From an uncultured Chloroflexia bacterium (GTDB taxonomy: Bacteria > Chloroflexota > Limnocylindria > Limnocylindrales > CSP1-4), in the NCBI GenBank assembly GCA_963704145.1, contig CAVPHB010000006.1, positions 686,624-750,623 of the forward strand: DNA of 64,000 nt, given 5' to 3'. The notes beneath the pieces are model-generated. The model ran no database searches and was not told the origin of the DNA. It worked only from the letters and a program-made list of their open reading frames with translations. The position numbers and the translations under genes are program-made. This document shows, in pieces, positions 11,754 to 53,704 of this stretch; within the stretch, counting starts at the first letter, position 1; every line of letters begins with the position of its first letter.

Positions 11754-13016
11754 GAGTCCGATTCGGCGGGTTCGGGCGCGGGCGGTGCGTCGGGCGTGGG
11801 ATCCCGCCCGGCGGTCGTTTCGGGTGCCGGCTCGGCGGGCACGCCGGCACCACCGACGGCGACCGAGGGCGGGGTCGGATGCGTACTGCGCGGCCCTCAC
11901 GTTCGCCCACCCGACGTGCGGCACGCGAGGTGACGTCGCGCGGCAGCTTCGGCGTTGCGCGTCAGGAAGTGCTGGAAGAAGGCGGCCATGATCGCGGCGA
12001 ACGGCAGGGCGAAGATCGCGCCGGCGATGCCGGCCAGCTTCAGGCCGAGCAGGACCGCGATCAGCACCACCACCGGGTGGATGCCGACAGCGTGGCCATC
12101 ACGCTCGGCACGACGAGGTTGGTCACCACGAACCAGCCGATGCCCATCACGATCAGCGTCGGGACGACCATCGTCGGTCTCGGTCAGGACCGCCACCACG
12201 ACCGGCGGCGCCCACGAGAAGAACGGGCCGAAGAACGGGATCGCCTGGAGCACGCCCGACCAGGGCCGTCGAGGCGGGCAGGAAATCGAGCCCAAAGGCG
12301 AAGTGCGCCACCGCCGCGATCATCGCCATGAGCAGGGCCTGGATGGCCTGGCCGCGGATGAAACCGCCGAACGATGTCGAGACGCTGGTCTCGAACAGCC
12401 GCGCGGTTTCGTTGTAACGCGGCGGTACGAGCCGGTTGATGTAGGCCAGCAGGCGGTCCTTGTCGAGCACGATGAACAGCGACAGGAAGATGATGATCAG
12501 CAGGTTGCCGACGATGCCCAGGCTGAACAGGGCCAGATCCCTGAGCGGCCCGACGAGCTTGTCGCCCAGGTCGCCCAGGTTGTCCAGGACGTCTCGTGCG
12601 GCCGCAACGAGGTCGATCTGGAAGCCCAGGCCCTGCAGGGCGCCCTGCACGCCGGAGAGGATTTCCGGCAGACGCGCCTGGAGGCTGGGCAGGTCGCGCA
12701 CGAAGTTGCCGATCGAGTTGGCCAGGCTGCCGGCGACGACGAGCGTGACCCAGCTCAAGCCGAGGAACAGCGCGAGATAGATCAATGCGACCACTGCGAC
12801 CCGCGGCAGCCTGGGAAAGGCGCGCATGACGAGGCCGATCAGCGGCGACAGGATGAACGCCAGCAGCCATGCCAGCAGCAGTACGAGCAGGATGTCGCTG
12901 AAGTAGACGAGGATGACGCTGACCTGGGCGACCAGGACGAGCGCCAGCACCAGCGTGCCGAGCACCAGCGCGGCGTGAAGCCAGCGGCGCTCAGACTCGG
13001 GCAGCTGGATCTCCAT
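11750..13016 (-). CDS. AI-2E (PerM/UPF0118) family transporter, frameshifted
   Basis: Hydrophobic helices; AFILSP, FIRGQ, IPFFGP, GIHPVVVLIAVLLG..LAGIAGAIFALP. Confidence 0.85.
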
Positions 13017-13086
13017 CAGGGGTTGAGTCTAGAGGAGGACGGGGAGCCATACCGGAGCGCTGGCGCCGCCACCGGAGACACAGCTG

Positions 13087-13222
13087 GCGGCAGAAGTCGC
13101 CATGTGGGACCTGGTTGCGCGCGCCGAGCCGCACCATGTGCCAGGCGTGCGGGTTGAGCGACATGTGGCTCAAGATGGCGCGGGTCGGGCGACAGCAGGT
13201 CGCTATATCGGACATTTGGCGC
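13087..13222. repeat. Orphan copy of the 135-bp three-module palindromic element
   Basis: GTN-N9/10-GAC cores at 13096, 13147 and 13199; about 80% identical (manual alignment) to the reverse complement of 53420-53572. Confidence 0.85.
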
Positions 13223-13235
13223 GAAGAAGTAGAGC

Positions 13236-14216
13236 CTAGCGCGGGCCGAGGCCCATCCGATGGTGGACTTCGCGCATCGTCTCGGCCGCTAACGGGGCCA
13301 GCCTGTCGGCACCGGCGCGCAGCACGTCCTCGACGTAATCGGGGCGTGCCTCCAGGTCGCGGCGGTGCTCGCGTGCCTCGGCGAAGAAAGCGATGATCCG
13401 GTCGGCCAGCAGCTTCTTGGTGTCGACGCAGCCGGTCCGTGCCGTGCGCTCGCCCTCCCAGGTGTGCTCGTAGTCGTCGCCGAAGAAGCGGTGCAGCTGG
13501 CACACGTTGCACACCTCGGGCCGGCCGGGCTGGGTGCGCAGGATGCGCTGCGTGTCGGTGACCATGCTCGTGACCTGCTTGCGGATGGTGTCCTGGTCGG
13601 CCAGGATCTCGATCGCGTTGCCGAGCGACTTGGACATCTTCTGCCCCCCGTCGGTGCCCAGGATGACCGGCGAATTGGTGAACACCGCCGCGGGCTCGAC
13701 GAAGTATTCGCCGTAGCGCCGATTCCAGGCGCGGACAATCTCGCGCGCCAGTTCGAGATGGGCGGCCTGGTCCTTGCCGACCGGCACGCGCCGGGCATGG
13801 TAGATGGCAATGTCGGCCGTCTGCAGCACGGGGTAGGTGAGCAGGGCGTGGTTGATGTCATCCGGCTGGTCGCGCTTCTTTTCCTTGAAGCTCGGCGTGC
13901 GCTCGACCCAGCTGACCGGCACAACCGTCGAGAAGAGGTAGGCCAGCTCGGCGTGCTCGGGCCGATCCGACTGGCGGAACAGGATGGCTCGCTCGGGGTC
14001 AAGTCCCAGGGCGAGCAGAGTGACCGCCATCTCGTGCGTGTTGCGCCGGATGCTCTCGGCCTCGTGGGTCGAGGTCAGCGCGTGGTAGTCGACGATGCAA
14101 TAGATCGCGTCGCCGCCTTCCTGGAGCGCGATGTAGTTACGGATCGCGCCCAGGTAGTTGCCCAGGTGCGGCAAGCCGGAAGGCTGGATGCCCGAGAAGA
14201 CTCGATCGGCTGTCAT
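13236..14216 (-). CDS. trpS: Tryptophan--tRNA ligase
   Basis: FSGIQPSG, HLGNY, YPVLQTADI, VPVGKDQ, KMSKS. Confidence 0.95.
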   Translation of the reverse strand: MTADRVFSGIQPSGLPHLGNYLGAIRNYIALQEGGDAIYCIVDYHALTSTHEAESIRRNTHEMAVTLLALGLDPERAILFRQSDRPEHAELAYLFSTVVPVSWVERTPSFKEKKRDQPDDINHALLTYPVLQTADIAIYHARRVPVGKDQAAHLELAREIVRAWNRRYGEYFVEPAAVFTNSPVILGTDGGQKMSKSLGNAIEILADQDTIRKQVTSMVTDTQRILRTQPGRPEVCNVCQLHRFFGDDYEHTWEGERTARTGCVDTKKLLADRIIAFFAEAREHRRDLEARPDYVEDVLRAGADRLAPLAAETMREVHHRMGLGPR

Positions 14217-14282
14217 CGCCGGCCGAGTGTAGCCGCGCCTGCGGGCCCAGGCAGCCCGCCTGTCACAATCTTGGCCATGCGC

Positions 14283-15397
14283 ATGAGTGACGTCCTGCGC
14301 CAGCTCCGCCAGCAGCGCACGACCGCCGACGCGCGGCCGCGGCTGATGGAGCGCTACGCAGCGTTCCTGCCGGTCAGCGGCCAGACGCCGAACATCTCGC
14401 TGGGCGAGGGCTACACGCCGCTCGTCCATGCGCGCAACCTGGGCCGGCTGATCGGCTGCCCGTTGCTCCATCTGAAGGTCGAGGGCGCCAACCCGACCGG
14501 CTCGTTCAAGGACCGCGGCATGGTCGTCGCGGTGGCCAAGGCGCTCGAGGCGGGCGCGCGCGCGATCGTGTGCGCCTCGACCGGCAACACCGCCGCCTCG
14601 GCCGCGGCCTACGGCGCCGCCGCCGGGCTGGAGGTCGTCGTCGTGTTGCCCGGGGGCCAGATCGCGGCGGGCAAGCTGCTCCAGGCGCAGATCTGCGGCG
14701 CGCGCGTGGTCGCGGTCGACGGCAACTTCGACCAGGCGCTGGCGGCCGTGCGCGAGCTGGTCGAGGGCGCCGACTCGACCGACCGCCGGTGACGCTCGTC
14801 AACTCGGTCAACCCGCACCGCCTGGCCGGCCAGAAGACGGCGGCGTTCGAGGTCTGCGAGGACCTCGGCGGCGCGCCCGACTACCTCGCCATCCCGGTGG
14901 GCAACGCGGGCAACATCAGCGCCTACTGGCAGGGCTTCACCGACTACCGCGACGCGGGCCTGGTCGAGACGCGACCCGCGATGCTCGGCTTCCAGGCGGC
15001 CGGCGCGGCGCCGCTCGTCGTCGGCACCCCGGTTGAGGAGCCGCAGACTGTGGCCACGGCGATTCGCATCGGCAATCCGGCCAGTGCGGCGCAAGGCGCT
15101 CCGGGCGCGCGACGAATCGGGCGGCGTGATCGAGGCCGTCACCGACGACGAGATCCTGGCCGCCTACCGTGACCTGGCCCGCTACGAGGGCATCTTCTGT
15201 GAGCCGGCCTCGGCTGCGTCGGTCGCCGGCGTGCGCAAGATGGCCGCCGCCGGCCGAATTGATCCGGGCACGACAATCGTGTGCGTGCTGACCGGTCACG
15301 GCCTGAAGGATCCCGACACGGCCGCTGCGCACGGTCGTGCCGACGCTCCAAGCCGCCCCGAAGCGCGGCCGGCGTTCGCGAGGCCCTGGGCTGGTGA
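14283..15397 (+). CDS. thrC: Threonine synthase, frameshifted near 14785, 15090 and 15340
   Basis: [53 protein letters not shown]. Confidence 0.93.
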
Positions 15398-38585: not shown

Positions 38586-38683
38586 GCACGCTGGCACGCT
38601 GGCACGCTGGCACGCTGGAGCCGCTTGGGCGCTGGAGCGCTGTCACGCTGGCACGCTGGAGCCGCTGGGGCGCTGGAGCGCTG
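38586..38683. repeat. Tandem 8-9-bp repeats (GCACGCTG / GCGCTGGA)
   Basis: gcacgctg x4 followed by degenerate units up to about 38683. Confidence 0.85.
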
Positions 38684-38716
38684 CGGTCGTCTGCCGCCCG
38701 GCGGCCGGGTCAGTTC

Positions 38717-38851
38717 GCGCCCGGTGTTCGGTACGCGGACCTCGTCGAGGTGTTTCGATGCCATCTCGTGCCAGGTGTGCCACGACGGGACAGGTGGCAC
38801 GGCCGGCGGCCGTCATCCGCGGACGAGGTTCGTATCCGGCACTGCTGACAC
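38717..38851. repeat. 135-bp three-module palindromic element downstream of the HTH-nuclease gene, overlapping its stop codon
   Basis: GTN-N9-NAC cores at 38726, 38777 and 38828; central module GTGCCA-GGT-GTG-N9-GAC-AGG-TGGCAC. Confidence 0.8.
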
Positions 38852-39510
38852 AAACCAGATCCCGCGCAGCGGAGCCGCGGGTTGCCGCAGCCACGCGCGC
38901 ACCTCGCGGCTGCGGGCCGGATAGGCGGCCGCCATCGTTGCCGGATGCGCGGCCACGATCCGTCGGATCGCGTTGTCACGCGGCACGATGAGCAGACGGC
39001 CGACGATGTTTGGCCACCAACCGAAGCGGGCGTGGGCCAGCTTGGGTGCAAGTCGCTCCTTGACGTCGAGCGTCCTGTTCAGCTCCTCGAGTGAGCCGAA
39101 CTCGCTCTTGACCTCGCATACCGCTATGGCGAGCCGGGCCCCGTGCGCGGCGAAGATGTCGATCGAGCCACGCTCGCCGAACTCGGCGAAGGACAGCTCC
39201 ACCGCCGTCTGCCATCCGCGTGCCCGGAACACTCGTGCGGCGCGTTCCACCAGTGCCGCGTGTCGCTCATCGAGCAATCGGTCCGCCGCCGCGCCATTCC
39301 ACCACGGCACGAGTCGGCCGCGCCCGCCCGCTGCCTCGAGGATCCGCCTGACGCGGCCGAGCTTGACGTCTGCGGCGCGGCCGGCCTCGATGCGAATCAC
39401 GTCGATGCGCGGCACGCCGGCCCAGACCGCGAGCTCGTTCTGTGTATGGCCGGTCTTCCTGCGGATGAGCCGTAGCAGGTGAGCAAGCGCTCGTCGTCGT
39501 TGGTCGCCAC
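38813..39510 (-). CDS. XRE-type HTH + PD-(D/E)XK restriction-endonuclease-like protein
   Basis: LRLIRRKTGHTQNELA...IRIEAG (HTH); LLDERHAALVE; GSIDIF...VCEVKS (D...ExK). Likely start GTG 39510 (MATNDDERL) with a 1-nt frame break near 39485. Confidence 0.8.
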
Positions 39511-39592
39511 GGGGAACAAGTCTGGGCCGGCCCGCTTGCCGCGGACCTACCCCGGCCTCCTCTGCCAATTGCGCTTGGACGCCCACTGCCTT

Positions 39593-39727
39593 GCTCCGAA
39601 TGTCCCGATGTCGTACTCCGTCCCAAATCCGACGGCCCAAGAAGTGCCAGGGGTGCGAGCGCGAGACATCTGGCGCAATCCGGAGCCGTCTGGCGCGGAT
39701 GGAGTCCCTATCCGGGACATCTGCCAC
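39593..39727. repeat. 135-bp three-module palindromic element upstream of the HTH-nuclease gene
   Basis: Cores at 39602, 39653 and 39704; central module GTGCCA-GGG-GTG-N9-GAC-ATC-TGGCGC. Confidence 0.8.
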
Positions 39728-51672: not shown

Positions 51673-53352
51673 GTGACCGACCTGATCGTCGAGAGCCCGG
51701 TCATTGATCTGGCCGACCGCTTCTGGCAGTGGTTCCTGGCTCGCCAACCGATGTACGCGACGGTGCTCGGCGACGAGCGTTACGACGATCGCCTGGCCGA
51801 CCCGTCGCCCGAAGGGCGGGCCGAGGAGGTCGCCGGACTGAAGGGCTTCCTGCACGACGCCCGACAGGTCGAGCGTCAGACCCTCGAGCAGGAGGATCTG
51901 ATCACGCTCGACATGCTCGAGGTGGTGGCGCGCATCTGGCTGCGCCAGCACGAGCATCACGTTCACCATTTCGAGGCGATCGACCAGATGTCGGGCCCGC
52001 ACGGCCTGGCCGGCGACCTGTCCCGCTTTCAGCGCGTTGACAGCGTCGAGCGGATCGACCGGCTCGTCCAGCGCCTCGAGGCGTTCCCCCATTTCCTGGC
52101 CGCCCATCGCGCCAACCTGCTCGAGGGCGTCGCCGCCGGCCGAACGGCAGCAGCACCGGTGGTCGCCCGGGTGATCGACCAGGCCCGCCGCGCGATCGAG
52201 ACGCCGATCGATCAATCGCCGTTGCTGGCCGCGCATCCCGAGCTCGATGACGCGTCACGCACCCGGATCCGGGCGGCGATCGAAGAGAACGTCATGCCCG
52301 CGTTGGTCGATCACCTGGCCGCCCTGCGAGGGCTACGCCCCCTATGCGCGCATCAGGGAAGGCGTGTGCGCGCTGCCCGACGGCAACGAGCTGTACAAGA
52401 CGATGATCCTTGCCTCGACGACGCTGGAGGAGACGCCCGAGTCAATTCACCAGTACGGCCTCGAGCAGCTCGAGCTGATCCGCGAGGAGACCGGAGGGAT
52501 CGCCACTGAGCTCGGCTTCGCACGACGTGCCCGAGATGCGCCGCGCGCTGGCCTCCGACGCCTCGAACTACGCCACCAGCGGCAGCCGAGATCGTCGAGC
52601 GCGCGCGGCGTCAGATAGAGAAAGCCAACGCCGCCGCACCGCGCTGGTTCGGCCGCCTGCCGGTGGCCGGCTGCGAGGTGCGCCCGGTCGAGCCGTTCCA
52701 GGAGGCCGAGGCGCCGCCCGCCTTCTACTTCCCGCCCGCCCCCGACGGATCGCGCGGTGGGATCTACTTCGTCAACACCTACCAGCCCGAGAGTCGGCCG
52801 CTGTATCGCCTGGCGACTACGACCTACCACGAGGCAACACCGGGCCATCACTTTCAGATCGCGCTCGAGAGCGAGATGACGGACCAGCCCGACTTCCGCC
52901 GCTTCGGCGCCCGTCTGACGGGCGCCGCCTATCCCGAGGGCTGGGGCCTGTACAGCGAGCGGCTGGCCGACGAGATGGGCCTCTTCGAGAGCGCCTGGGA
53001 GCGGCTGGGCATGCTCGACGCGCAGGCCTGGCGCGCGGCGCGGCTGGTGGTCGACACCGGCATCCACGCCTTCGAATGGAGCCGGGCGCAGTCGGTCGAG
53101 CTGCTCACGACGGTCGGCCTGTCCCGGCTCGAGGCGGAGACCGAGACCGATCGCTACATCGCCTGGCCGGGCCAGGCCCTGGCCTACATGACCGGCATGC
53201 GCGAGATCGTCGCCCTGCGCCGCCAGCTCGAGCAGCGCGACGGCGATCGGTTCGACCTGGTCGGGTTCCACGATGAACTGCTCGGCCACGGCACGCTGCC
53301 GCTGGCCACCATGCGCCGCGTGCTGCCCGGCTGGGTCAAGCCGCGCGCCTAG
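51673..53352 (+). CDS. DUF885 family protein (putative metallopeptidase-like), frameshifted
   Basis: YHEATPGHHFQ, YPEGWGLYSE, WRAARLVVDTGIH, RYIAWPGQALAY. Confidence 0.9.
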
Positions 53353-53422
53353 CTCTGCTGCCGGTCGCGCGGGTCCGTTCAGCGCCCGGTTGTCTTCGCG
53401 CCAAGGGTCCGCCACGCCTTTC

Positions 53423-53557
53423 GCGCCAAGTGTGCGACATAGCAACCTGATGGCGCCCGACCCGCGCCATGTTGCGCCACACGTCCCTCACCCGCACTCT
53501 TGGCACAAACTGAAGCTCGGCGCGCGCCATCAGGTCCCAAATGGCGACTTCTGACGC
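53423..53557. repeat. Orphan copy of the 135-bp three-module palindromic element
   Basis: Cores at 53432, 53483 and 53534 (exact 51-bp steps). Confidence 0.85.
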
Positions 53558-53704
53558 AGCCTGTGTCTTCGGCGGCCGCACCGGGGCGGGTCATTCAGCG
53601 CCCGGTCGTGGGACTGAACGTACCGCGCCGTGTGACTGATGGCCCATGCGTGCCGGCCGGTGCTGCTTACCATCGAACTCACTGCACGTAAAGAGGAGAC
53701 CGCG

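Follow-up and report, generated by a model that had tools for sequence, protein, structure and literature searches.

A palindromic repeat between trpS and an AI-2E transporter gene as a probable relic of an IS481-type miniature element in an uncultured Chloroflexota lineage

The repeat that lies near 13 kb of the DNA analysed here, a stretch of 64,000 nucleotides (the window), is probably the decayed and immobile relic of a transposase-less miniature element, of the kind called a MITE or a mobile insertion cassette, that was built on IS481 ends. We put this reading slightly above even odds (about 0.55), and we hold with the same confidence that the element landed behind trpS, at a CTAG, before these strains split, subsequently lost both ends and is now inert. 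Counted in favour of this reading are the shell of IS481-type ends around five other copies of the same family (59k, 258k, 588k, 834k and C1:96k), the bracketing of the 13-kb copy by CTAG, a contig from a close relative (X3), the star-like tree of the copies and their variable orientation. Counted against it are the lack of an inverted-repeat remnant at the 13-kb and 53-kb copies, the lack of a full transposase in the assembly, the absence of the core sequence from 27 foreign loci with the same ends, and the failure to find an empty site in the relatives compared. The cargo is unusual; otherwise the feature is mostly ordinary, an eroded miniature transposon, and the 13-kb copy in itself is a genomic fossil of modest importance. 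The positions of all features are collected in Table 1.

Table 1. Features of the 13-kb locus, copies of the repeat family and the HTH-nuclease locus. Positions are those of the window unless a contig of the assembly (C1, C4 or C6) is named; reference positions are those of a 341-nt reference copy.
Feature	Position	Strand	Remarks
AI-2E family transporter gene	12153..13016	-	Pfam PF01594, E 4.7e-25; downstream neighbour
Class I Trp/Tyr tRNA synthetase gene (trpS)	13236..14471	-	Pfam PF00579, E 8.4e-64; upstream neighbour
Left CTAG	13029..13032		Proposed left IS481-type target site, 13 nt before the start of the AI-2E gene
24-nt segment	13033..13056	+	Place of the left inverted repeat and a small hairpin in intact copies
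Triad core, 13-kb copy	13057..13232	+	Imperfect palindrome of ~140 bp; reference positions 58-232; inverted repeats unrecognisable
Core, left arm	13096-13123
Core, dyad centre	~13138-13184
Core, right arm	13199-13226
Right CTAG	13236..13239		The trpS stop codon (TAG, minus strand) makes up its first three bases
XRE-type HTH + PD-(D/E)XK nuclease gene (predicted)	38813..39520	-	HTH_31, E 6.5e-7; UPF0102 only at E 0.11
Distantly related triad	38714..38861	-	Overlaps the HTH-nuclease gene at its 3' end; matches profile positions 10-157 in targeted nhmmer (E 0.0081)
Distantly related triad	39638..39723	+	Upstream of the HTH-nuclease gene; nhmmer E 0.23 genome-wide, 5.9e-5 targeted
Second core copy (53-kb copy)	53412..53590	-	Between the DUF885 gene and acs; reference positions 58-235; inverted repeats unrecognisable
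13-kb copy, contig position	C6:699691		Profile search; in the window
53-kb copy, contig position	C6:740040		Profile search; in the window
59k copy	C6:59763		Profile search
258k copy	C6:258526		Profile search
588k copy	C6:588111		Profile search; reference positions 26-235 and 224-332; left end with 3/26 mismatches; homology to right end; tail tandem duplication
834k copy	C6:834041		Profile search; reference positions 56-332; right end kept
C1:96k copy	C1:96126		Profile search; reference positions 65-323; right end kept, degenerate
Divergent eighth copy	C4:490015-490153		nhmmer, E 3e-7
Family right inverted repeat			Reads ...ACGT..GGGAATCACA

The core element and its copies

An earlier note, made from the letters of the window, had placed a three-module element between trpS and the AI-2E gene and described it as about 80% identical to the reverse complement of a copy at 53 kb, with one extra base. 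Both statements were borne out. The element fills the 219-nt spacer that separates these two minus-strand genes. Positions 13050-13240 (plus strand) align with 53400-53600 (minus strand) at 87% mean column identity, the extra base of the 13-kb copy lying near 13154, and an independent repeat search returned the adjoining arms 13057-13154/53490-53587 (98 nt, 80%) and 13152-13225/53420-53493 (74 nt, 85%). Overall, the 13-kb core matches the reverse complement of the 53-kb core at 80-87% identity, which is far above chance. The repeat has no gene of its own and in this sense is non-autonomous, as the note had it.

Searches of the whole assembly (2.6 Mb in 8 contigs, 51% complete, 69% GC) with BLAST and nhmmer show that both copies belong to a family of about 160 nt, here called the triad, with seven clear copies (E 2e-45 to 7e-50) and a divergent eighth. 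Pairwise identity of the core among the seven is 75-89%, reaching 99% for the 59k/258k pair. All copies are intergenic, and the genes next to them are unrelated to one another: trpS and the AI-2E transporter gene, DUF885 and acs, fragments of leuS (on the 3' side), a convergent pair of ABC-2 permease and DUF4389 genes, glyoxalase and CopD, and a cyclase-ATPase. The orientation of the element relative to these genes is variable, and one copy lies between convergent genes. Because the neighbours are unrelated, the orientation variable and the copies scattered, a regulon operator and a parS-like site were both dropped as candidates. The triad was found by BLAST in 0/100 other genomes of the same family, three congeners included. 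A metagenome scan gave no match to the left-module pattern and three matches to the right-module pattern, all of them due to chance and located within coding regions. The copies form a star-like tree with shell-bearing copies on every branch, and the closest relative of the 13-kb copy is the 588k copy (88.7%), in which the shell is present. The divergent copy on C4 has clearly inverted outer modules, is without CTAG and IS481 ends, and, to judge from one start codon and one stop codon identified by eye, sits between two minus-strand genes.

The IS481-type shell and the history of the 13-kb copy

In most copies the triad is the core of a larger element of ~325 nt, as measured between the CTAGs of intact copies. 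Two copies, 59k and 258k (C6:59.7k and C6:258.4k), show 96% identity over 328 nt, and both have a CTAG on each side and 26-nt inverted ends, TGTGATTCCCGnnnACGTTGTTGACA; the inverted repeats of the intact form, 26-31 nt long, read TGTGATTCCCG...ACGTTGTTGACA. A shell of terminal inverted repeats, CTAG target sites or both surrounds the triad in 5/7 copies, and CTAG adjoins 8 of the 14 ends of the seven copies (counted by eye on the alignment). Terminal inverted repeats that match those of the autonomous insertion sequence are present in the 59k, 258k and 588k copies, while the 834k and C1:96k copies have them at one end; in the 13-kb copy none is recognisable.

The identity of these repeats as IS481 ends comes from other genomes. 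When one genome per species was scanned, the end pattern appeared at 27 loci in Limnocylindrales and other Chloroflexota MAGs, in which inverted pairs of the end, ~1035 bp apart, close IS481-family insertion sequences of ~1040 bp. One such element (L068) has CTAG on both sides, in the order CTAG, TTGTGATT...AATCACAA, CTAG, and its 331-aa product matches NF033577 (IS481-family transposase) with 310 bits against a cut-off of 224, as well as Pfam LZ_Tnp_IS481 and rve_3. None of the 27 foreign loci carries the triad, and in BLAST the 341-nt reference copy aligns with the full insertion sequence at the ends only. This makes the ~325-nt element a miniature of IS481 type with foreign cargo, so far seen in this lineage only. 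Shortened derivatives of this insertion sequence occur elsewhere too, since the same ends lie only ~580 bp apart, with no triad, in two other MAGs (L078 910-1495 and L090 1947-2526). In the assembly studied here the same end recurs with 0 mismatches in a transposase remnant at C6:14418-14580, where the frame of a DDE transposase stops at the adjoining CTAG. This remnant of an IS481-family transposase gene, which lies outside the window, consists of the last ~53 codons (C6:14422-14580), an intact right inverted repeat and a CTAG, and is the only trace in the assembly of the shell's likely parent; tblastn with the remnant as query, at a loose threshold and with mostly noise among its matches, recovered no complete gene for an IS481-type transposase with such ends from the 51%-complete assembly.

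Mobile insertion cassettes consist of the ends of an insertion sequence around cargo other than a transposase, as in the IS231-derived cassettes of Bacillus cereus, and IS481 of Bordetella is an insertion sequence of the IS481 family. On the evidence of its sequences, the triad family behaves like a MITE or a mobile insertion cassette on IS481 ends, and the intact copies appear to have the defining features of such elements. The family is small, non-coding and multi-copy; the inverted repeats of intact copies are identical to those of the full insertion sequence and have CTAG target-site copies at both ends; old copies are eroded; and the copies are dispersed, some of them, as at 59k and 258k, being near-identical. 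It differs in that its interior is a foreign palindromic core rather than an internally deleted insertion sequence, and the 13-kb copy itself is without the ends and is best called a relic. The excerpted account of ISLxc2, an IS481-family element of Leifsonia xyli, describes ends that begin with TGTG, duplication of NCTAGN and a stop codon within the target (PMC2516522). The likeness to that account lies in these points: the shell ends begin with TGTG, the MAG elements are ~1.04-1.1 kb long, and their transposase of ~330 aa has its stop codon in the duplicated NCTAGN/CTAG. The 13-kb element differs from this family in having no transposase gene, and only the shell of its related copies belongs there. 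In the open-access papers searched we found no bacterial IS481-derived miniature element and no paper on the repeats of this lineage.

At the 13-kb locus, the two CTAGs are separated by 203 nt and are the sole CTAGs between 12000 and 14500, lying 24 nt to the left and 3 nt to the right of the homology. CTAG occurs 1183 times in the 2.6 Mb of the genome (0.455 per kb), whereas base composition predicts 7444, and from the genome frequency we estimate the chance of such bracketing at ~1e-4. Of inverted repeats there is no recognisable trace. When the 24-nt segment inside the left CTAG was compared by Smith-Waterman with end segments taken from the 59k and 588k copies, the scores were at the level of shuffles (472 and 108 of 500 shuffles scored at least as high), and no remnant beside the 13-kb or the 53-kb copy rose above shuffles, the best case, the right end of the 53-kb copy against the 588k copy, being equalled by 20/500.

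Contigs from public sequencing runs were placed on 12400-13900, the best run containing 0.11 of the sampled words. A contig of 1303 nt from run X3, ~89% identical, is colinear with the window over 12421-13225 and 13236-13500, but 155 other letters replace the 10 bases between 13225 and 13236, on the trpS side. The element is thus present at this site in a relative of ~90% identity, where its right part is longer. The family tail measures ~106 nt in the 59k copy and ~156 nt, with duplicated units, in the 588k copy; judged from length alone, the extra 155 letters are presumably the family tail and right end. A short contig from run X1 skips 13018-13277, with just 20 letters on one side of the joint, and for runs X2 and X6 the uncovered parts of the stretch do not count as evidence of absence. 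The closest genome compared (G058) is more distant, with a trpS protein 83% identical and flanking genes 78-83% identical. Similarity to it breaks at both CTAG points, its trpS ends in TGA without a CTAG, and its spacer of 247 nt is unrelated and unique to that genome; the triad profile found nothing there. An impression by eye of similar end motifs in that spacer was dropped, since nhmmer gave no support. Alignments to congeners (~80% identical) yielded no empty site, their spacers being too diverged to align. The comparison of relatives that the earlier note had in mind thus gave the element at the same site in one relative, and an unrelated spacer but no empty site in G058.

If the relic reading is right, an IS481-family DDE transposase made elsewhere would have bound both inverted repeats of the intact element and inserted it at a CTAG, which was duplicated, with the ~160-nt palindromic triad carried along as cargo. 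The transposase presumably acted in trans, and the 13-kb copy presumably once had inverted repeats of its own. It would have retained its two CTAGs and the core, lost both inverted repeats and, at the trpS side, shed at least ~145 nt after the split from the ~90%-identical relative. With both inverted repeats gone, it would no longer be movable. The CTAG beside the 53-kb copy, a single one at 53349, contains the stop codon of the DUF885 gene. As CTAG is rare in this genome of 69% GC and contains a TAG stop in both cases in the window, the choice of target would explain why the element landed just behind genes, here behind trpS. With this family, miniature elements of IS481 type that carry foreign cargo are documented for an uncultured lineage of soil Chloroflexota, and it shows a route by which a CTAG-seeking element comes to lie right behind stop codons in a high-GC genome.

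The HTH-nuclease gene and other readings of the palindrome

The 13-kb and 53-kb copies have nearly the same core limits (reference positions 58 to 232 and 58 to 235) and the copy on C4 is bare, so the triad may be an independent unit, captured only afterwards by the shell. In the leading alternative to the relic, the triad would be a mobile or maintained unit, REPIN-like, and the DNA partner of a paralogue of an XRE-HTH/PD-(D/E)XK nuclease, which would bind the pseudo-palindromic modules; the 13-kb copy would be a solo or orphan member of that system, spread by the nuclease or left behind by loss of a cassette, and the shell would be a secondary capture. We consider this unlikely. The product of the gene at 38.8-39.5 kb is a credible nuclease of this kind: E109, D122, E137 and K139 are invariant across 29 homologues, and its AlphaFold model (mean pLDDT 90.3) resembles, by Foldseek, HipB-type repressors in the N-terminal part and restriction-like endonuclease domains (of R2 retrotransposon proteins, NucS, SduA and BstEII) in the C-terminal part. 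With the HTH_31 match, these results make the label HTH-nuclease a reasonable one for a predicted activity.

Both flanks of this gene match the triad profile in a targeted search (search space 672 nt), one of the matching triads overlapping the 3' end of the gene, and genome-wide only the family and the C4 copy score better than the flank at 39.6 kb, apart from a weak reverse-strand echo of the C4 copy itself (E 0.012). The relation that the earlier note saw between the 13-kb element and the triads at 38.7 and 39.6 kb is thus a distant similarity. The nuclease family is present in 95/100 other genomes of the same family, with 1-11 copies each (a tally that includes G082); in two congeners the nearest homologues are surrounded by other genes and have palindrome modules of their own, ending in GGCRCGAA (by eye). 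In a set of 30 nuclease loci that includes L117 of G082, repeats shared between the two flanks at E <= 1e-4 were found at 3/30 loci, and in 0/121 control pairs. Copies consisting of the triad only, at 13k, 53k and C4:490k, also fit a unit that moves or persists without the shell. Against this reading, none of the eight copies adjoins a nuclease gene, and the triad profiles found nothing at the loci of the 29 homologues in other genomes. At E <= 1e-2, flank-to-flank repeats were no commoner at nuclease loci (6/30) than in controls (22/121), and a generic module pattern (a 5-N-5 palindrome followed by GGCRCGAA) was barely enriched, with 113 matches against 71-94 in shuffles; this pattern is uninformative, because it missed the family's own modules. 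Finally, an IS481-type insertion is favoured by the two bracketing CTAGs and by the shell that the nearest relatives carry.

These results bear on several claims of the earlier note. It was right that no nuclease gene lies near the 13-kb copy: paralogues occur in the assembly only at 38813-39520 and at C1:67209-67877 (41% identical), with a weak match at C1:213860-214393. Nothing was found, however, to support its proposal that the 13-kb copy is the solo remnant of a nuclease cassette, and its subfamilies tied to nuclease paralogues show no tie for this copy. As a finding that would tell against its proposal, it had named an element kept in synteny across taxa and never linked to the nuclease; such conservation was not seen among the 100 genomes, while the copies indeed keep clear of nuclease genes.

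As far as the excerpts of two accounts of REPINs and RAYTs describe them (PMC3116915, PMC3337134), the triad is like a REPIN in being intergenic, a hairpin-forming inverted doublet and lineage-specific in sequence, and related sequences bracket a single gene for a DNA-binding enzyme, here a predicted one. Within the limits of the same excerpts, it differs in that the bracketed gene is predicted to encode an XRE-HTH/PD-(D/E)XK nuclease rather than an HUH (Y1) tyrosine transposase, in its low copy number (8), and in that 5/7 clear copies have parts of an IS481 shell, which is foreign to REPINs. A broader proposal, more doubtful still, is that the triad is the cognate DNA of an undescribed class of XRE-HTH/PD-(D/E)XK nucleases in a REPIN/RAYT-like partnership, with one triad subfamily in this species additionally hitch-hiking on IS481 ends. 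If so, the 13-kb copy would be an orphan array of binding sites still able to recruit or titrate the protein. The distant kinship between the cargo and the flanks of this widespread, multi-copy HTH-nuclease gene may point to lineage-wide partnerships of proteins and repeats.

Several repeats near nuclease genes were noted in passing. The right flank of the paralogue at C1:67209-67877 (C1:67900-68100) has three different palindromes, of the type TACGCG-N-CGCGTA, and one module resembling those of the 13-kb copy, GTCGCCCATTCGGGTC...GGCGCG, lies upstream of it (C1:66980-67010). In the window, tandem repeats of 8 nt and of 33-41 nt (CGCTGGCA-type units) occupy 38589-38678, between the stop codon of the preceding gene and the 38.7-kb triad.

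It is also conceivable that the host, whatever the origin of the element, now uses it as a cis-acting signal between the trpS and AI-2E genes, either as a hairpin in a read-through transcript that stabilises a 3' end or acts as an attenuator, or through modules that act as operators. We regard this as improbable. Both neighbours are on the minus strand with the element occupying the whole spacer, the minus-strand RNA would fold at -72.5 kcal/mol (z -2.3), and the element has been kept at the same site in the ~90% relative. However, a scan for promoter and terminator consensus sequences over 12900-13400 found no sites, the copies lie in both orientations beside unrelated genes, including between convergent ones, and the spacer differs in G058.

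The core is in any case an imperfect palindrome. Its arms are ~67% alike (hand count), and RNAalifold on the seven copies gave 50 consensus pairs, 46 of them in one long imperfect hairpin that spans the core; 90.3% of the cells of the consensus hairpin are paired, against 31-45% with the partners slid. The covariation term was a penalty (+2.88), with compensatory change in 3/50 pairs, and a covariation score of 0.092, compared with 0.082 in shuffles, was equalled by 70 of 500. Folds of single sequences were mildly above shuffles (z -1.8 and -2.3), and Rfam gave 0 matches at gathering thresholds across the whole window. Given the high pairing, covariation at shuffle level, modest folds and empty Rfam search, the three modules of the earlier note, which are real sequence features, are best taken as the arms and the centre of a single long imperfect DNA palindrome. 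A structured non-coding RNA gene, the possibility against which that note had advised a check, is highly improbable: about 90% of the consensus-hairpin cells pair, but covariation offers no evidence of a conserved RNA, and the element was not found in the 100 related genomes and is variable in its orientation to transcription.

The 53-kb site and other repeats in the window

Some further features were observed around the 53-kb copy. It is flanked by a direct repeat of ~24 nt (ACGACCGGGCGCTGAATGACCCGC and ACAACCGGGCGCTGAACGGACCCGC) at 53380-53400 and 53593-53615 (minus-strand view), the 13-nt core of which occurs nowhere else in the assembly. At the DUF885/acs site (53353-53638 compared with L047-L052), three congeners (G015, G058 and G085) have an extra gene of ~0.9-1 kb before acs, and G058 and G085 have an additional HTH gene with its own flanking repeats of ~210 nt. 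This HTH gene was considered as a relative of the window's nuclease and set aside, no relation being detectable. The genome studied here (G000) has neither extra gene at this site, just the 53-kb triad copy, and the difference may reflect an element-associated deletion. Of the 532 positions of the DUF885 profile, the open reading frame at 52663-53352 spans only 314-531, and leuS is broken up (L031 6289-8863); such truncated or split genes suggest frameshift errors or pseudogenes in the assembly. Elsewhere in the window, between 28100 and 30300, pairs of direct and inverted repeats of 100-150 nt with 71-77% identity are probably paralogous genes lying side by side.
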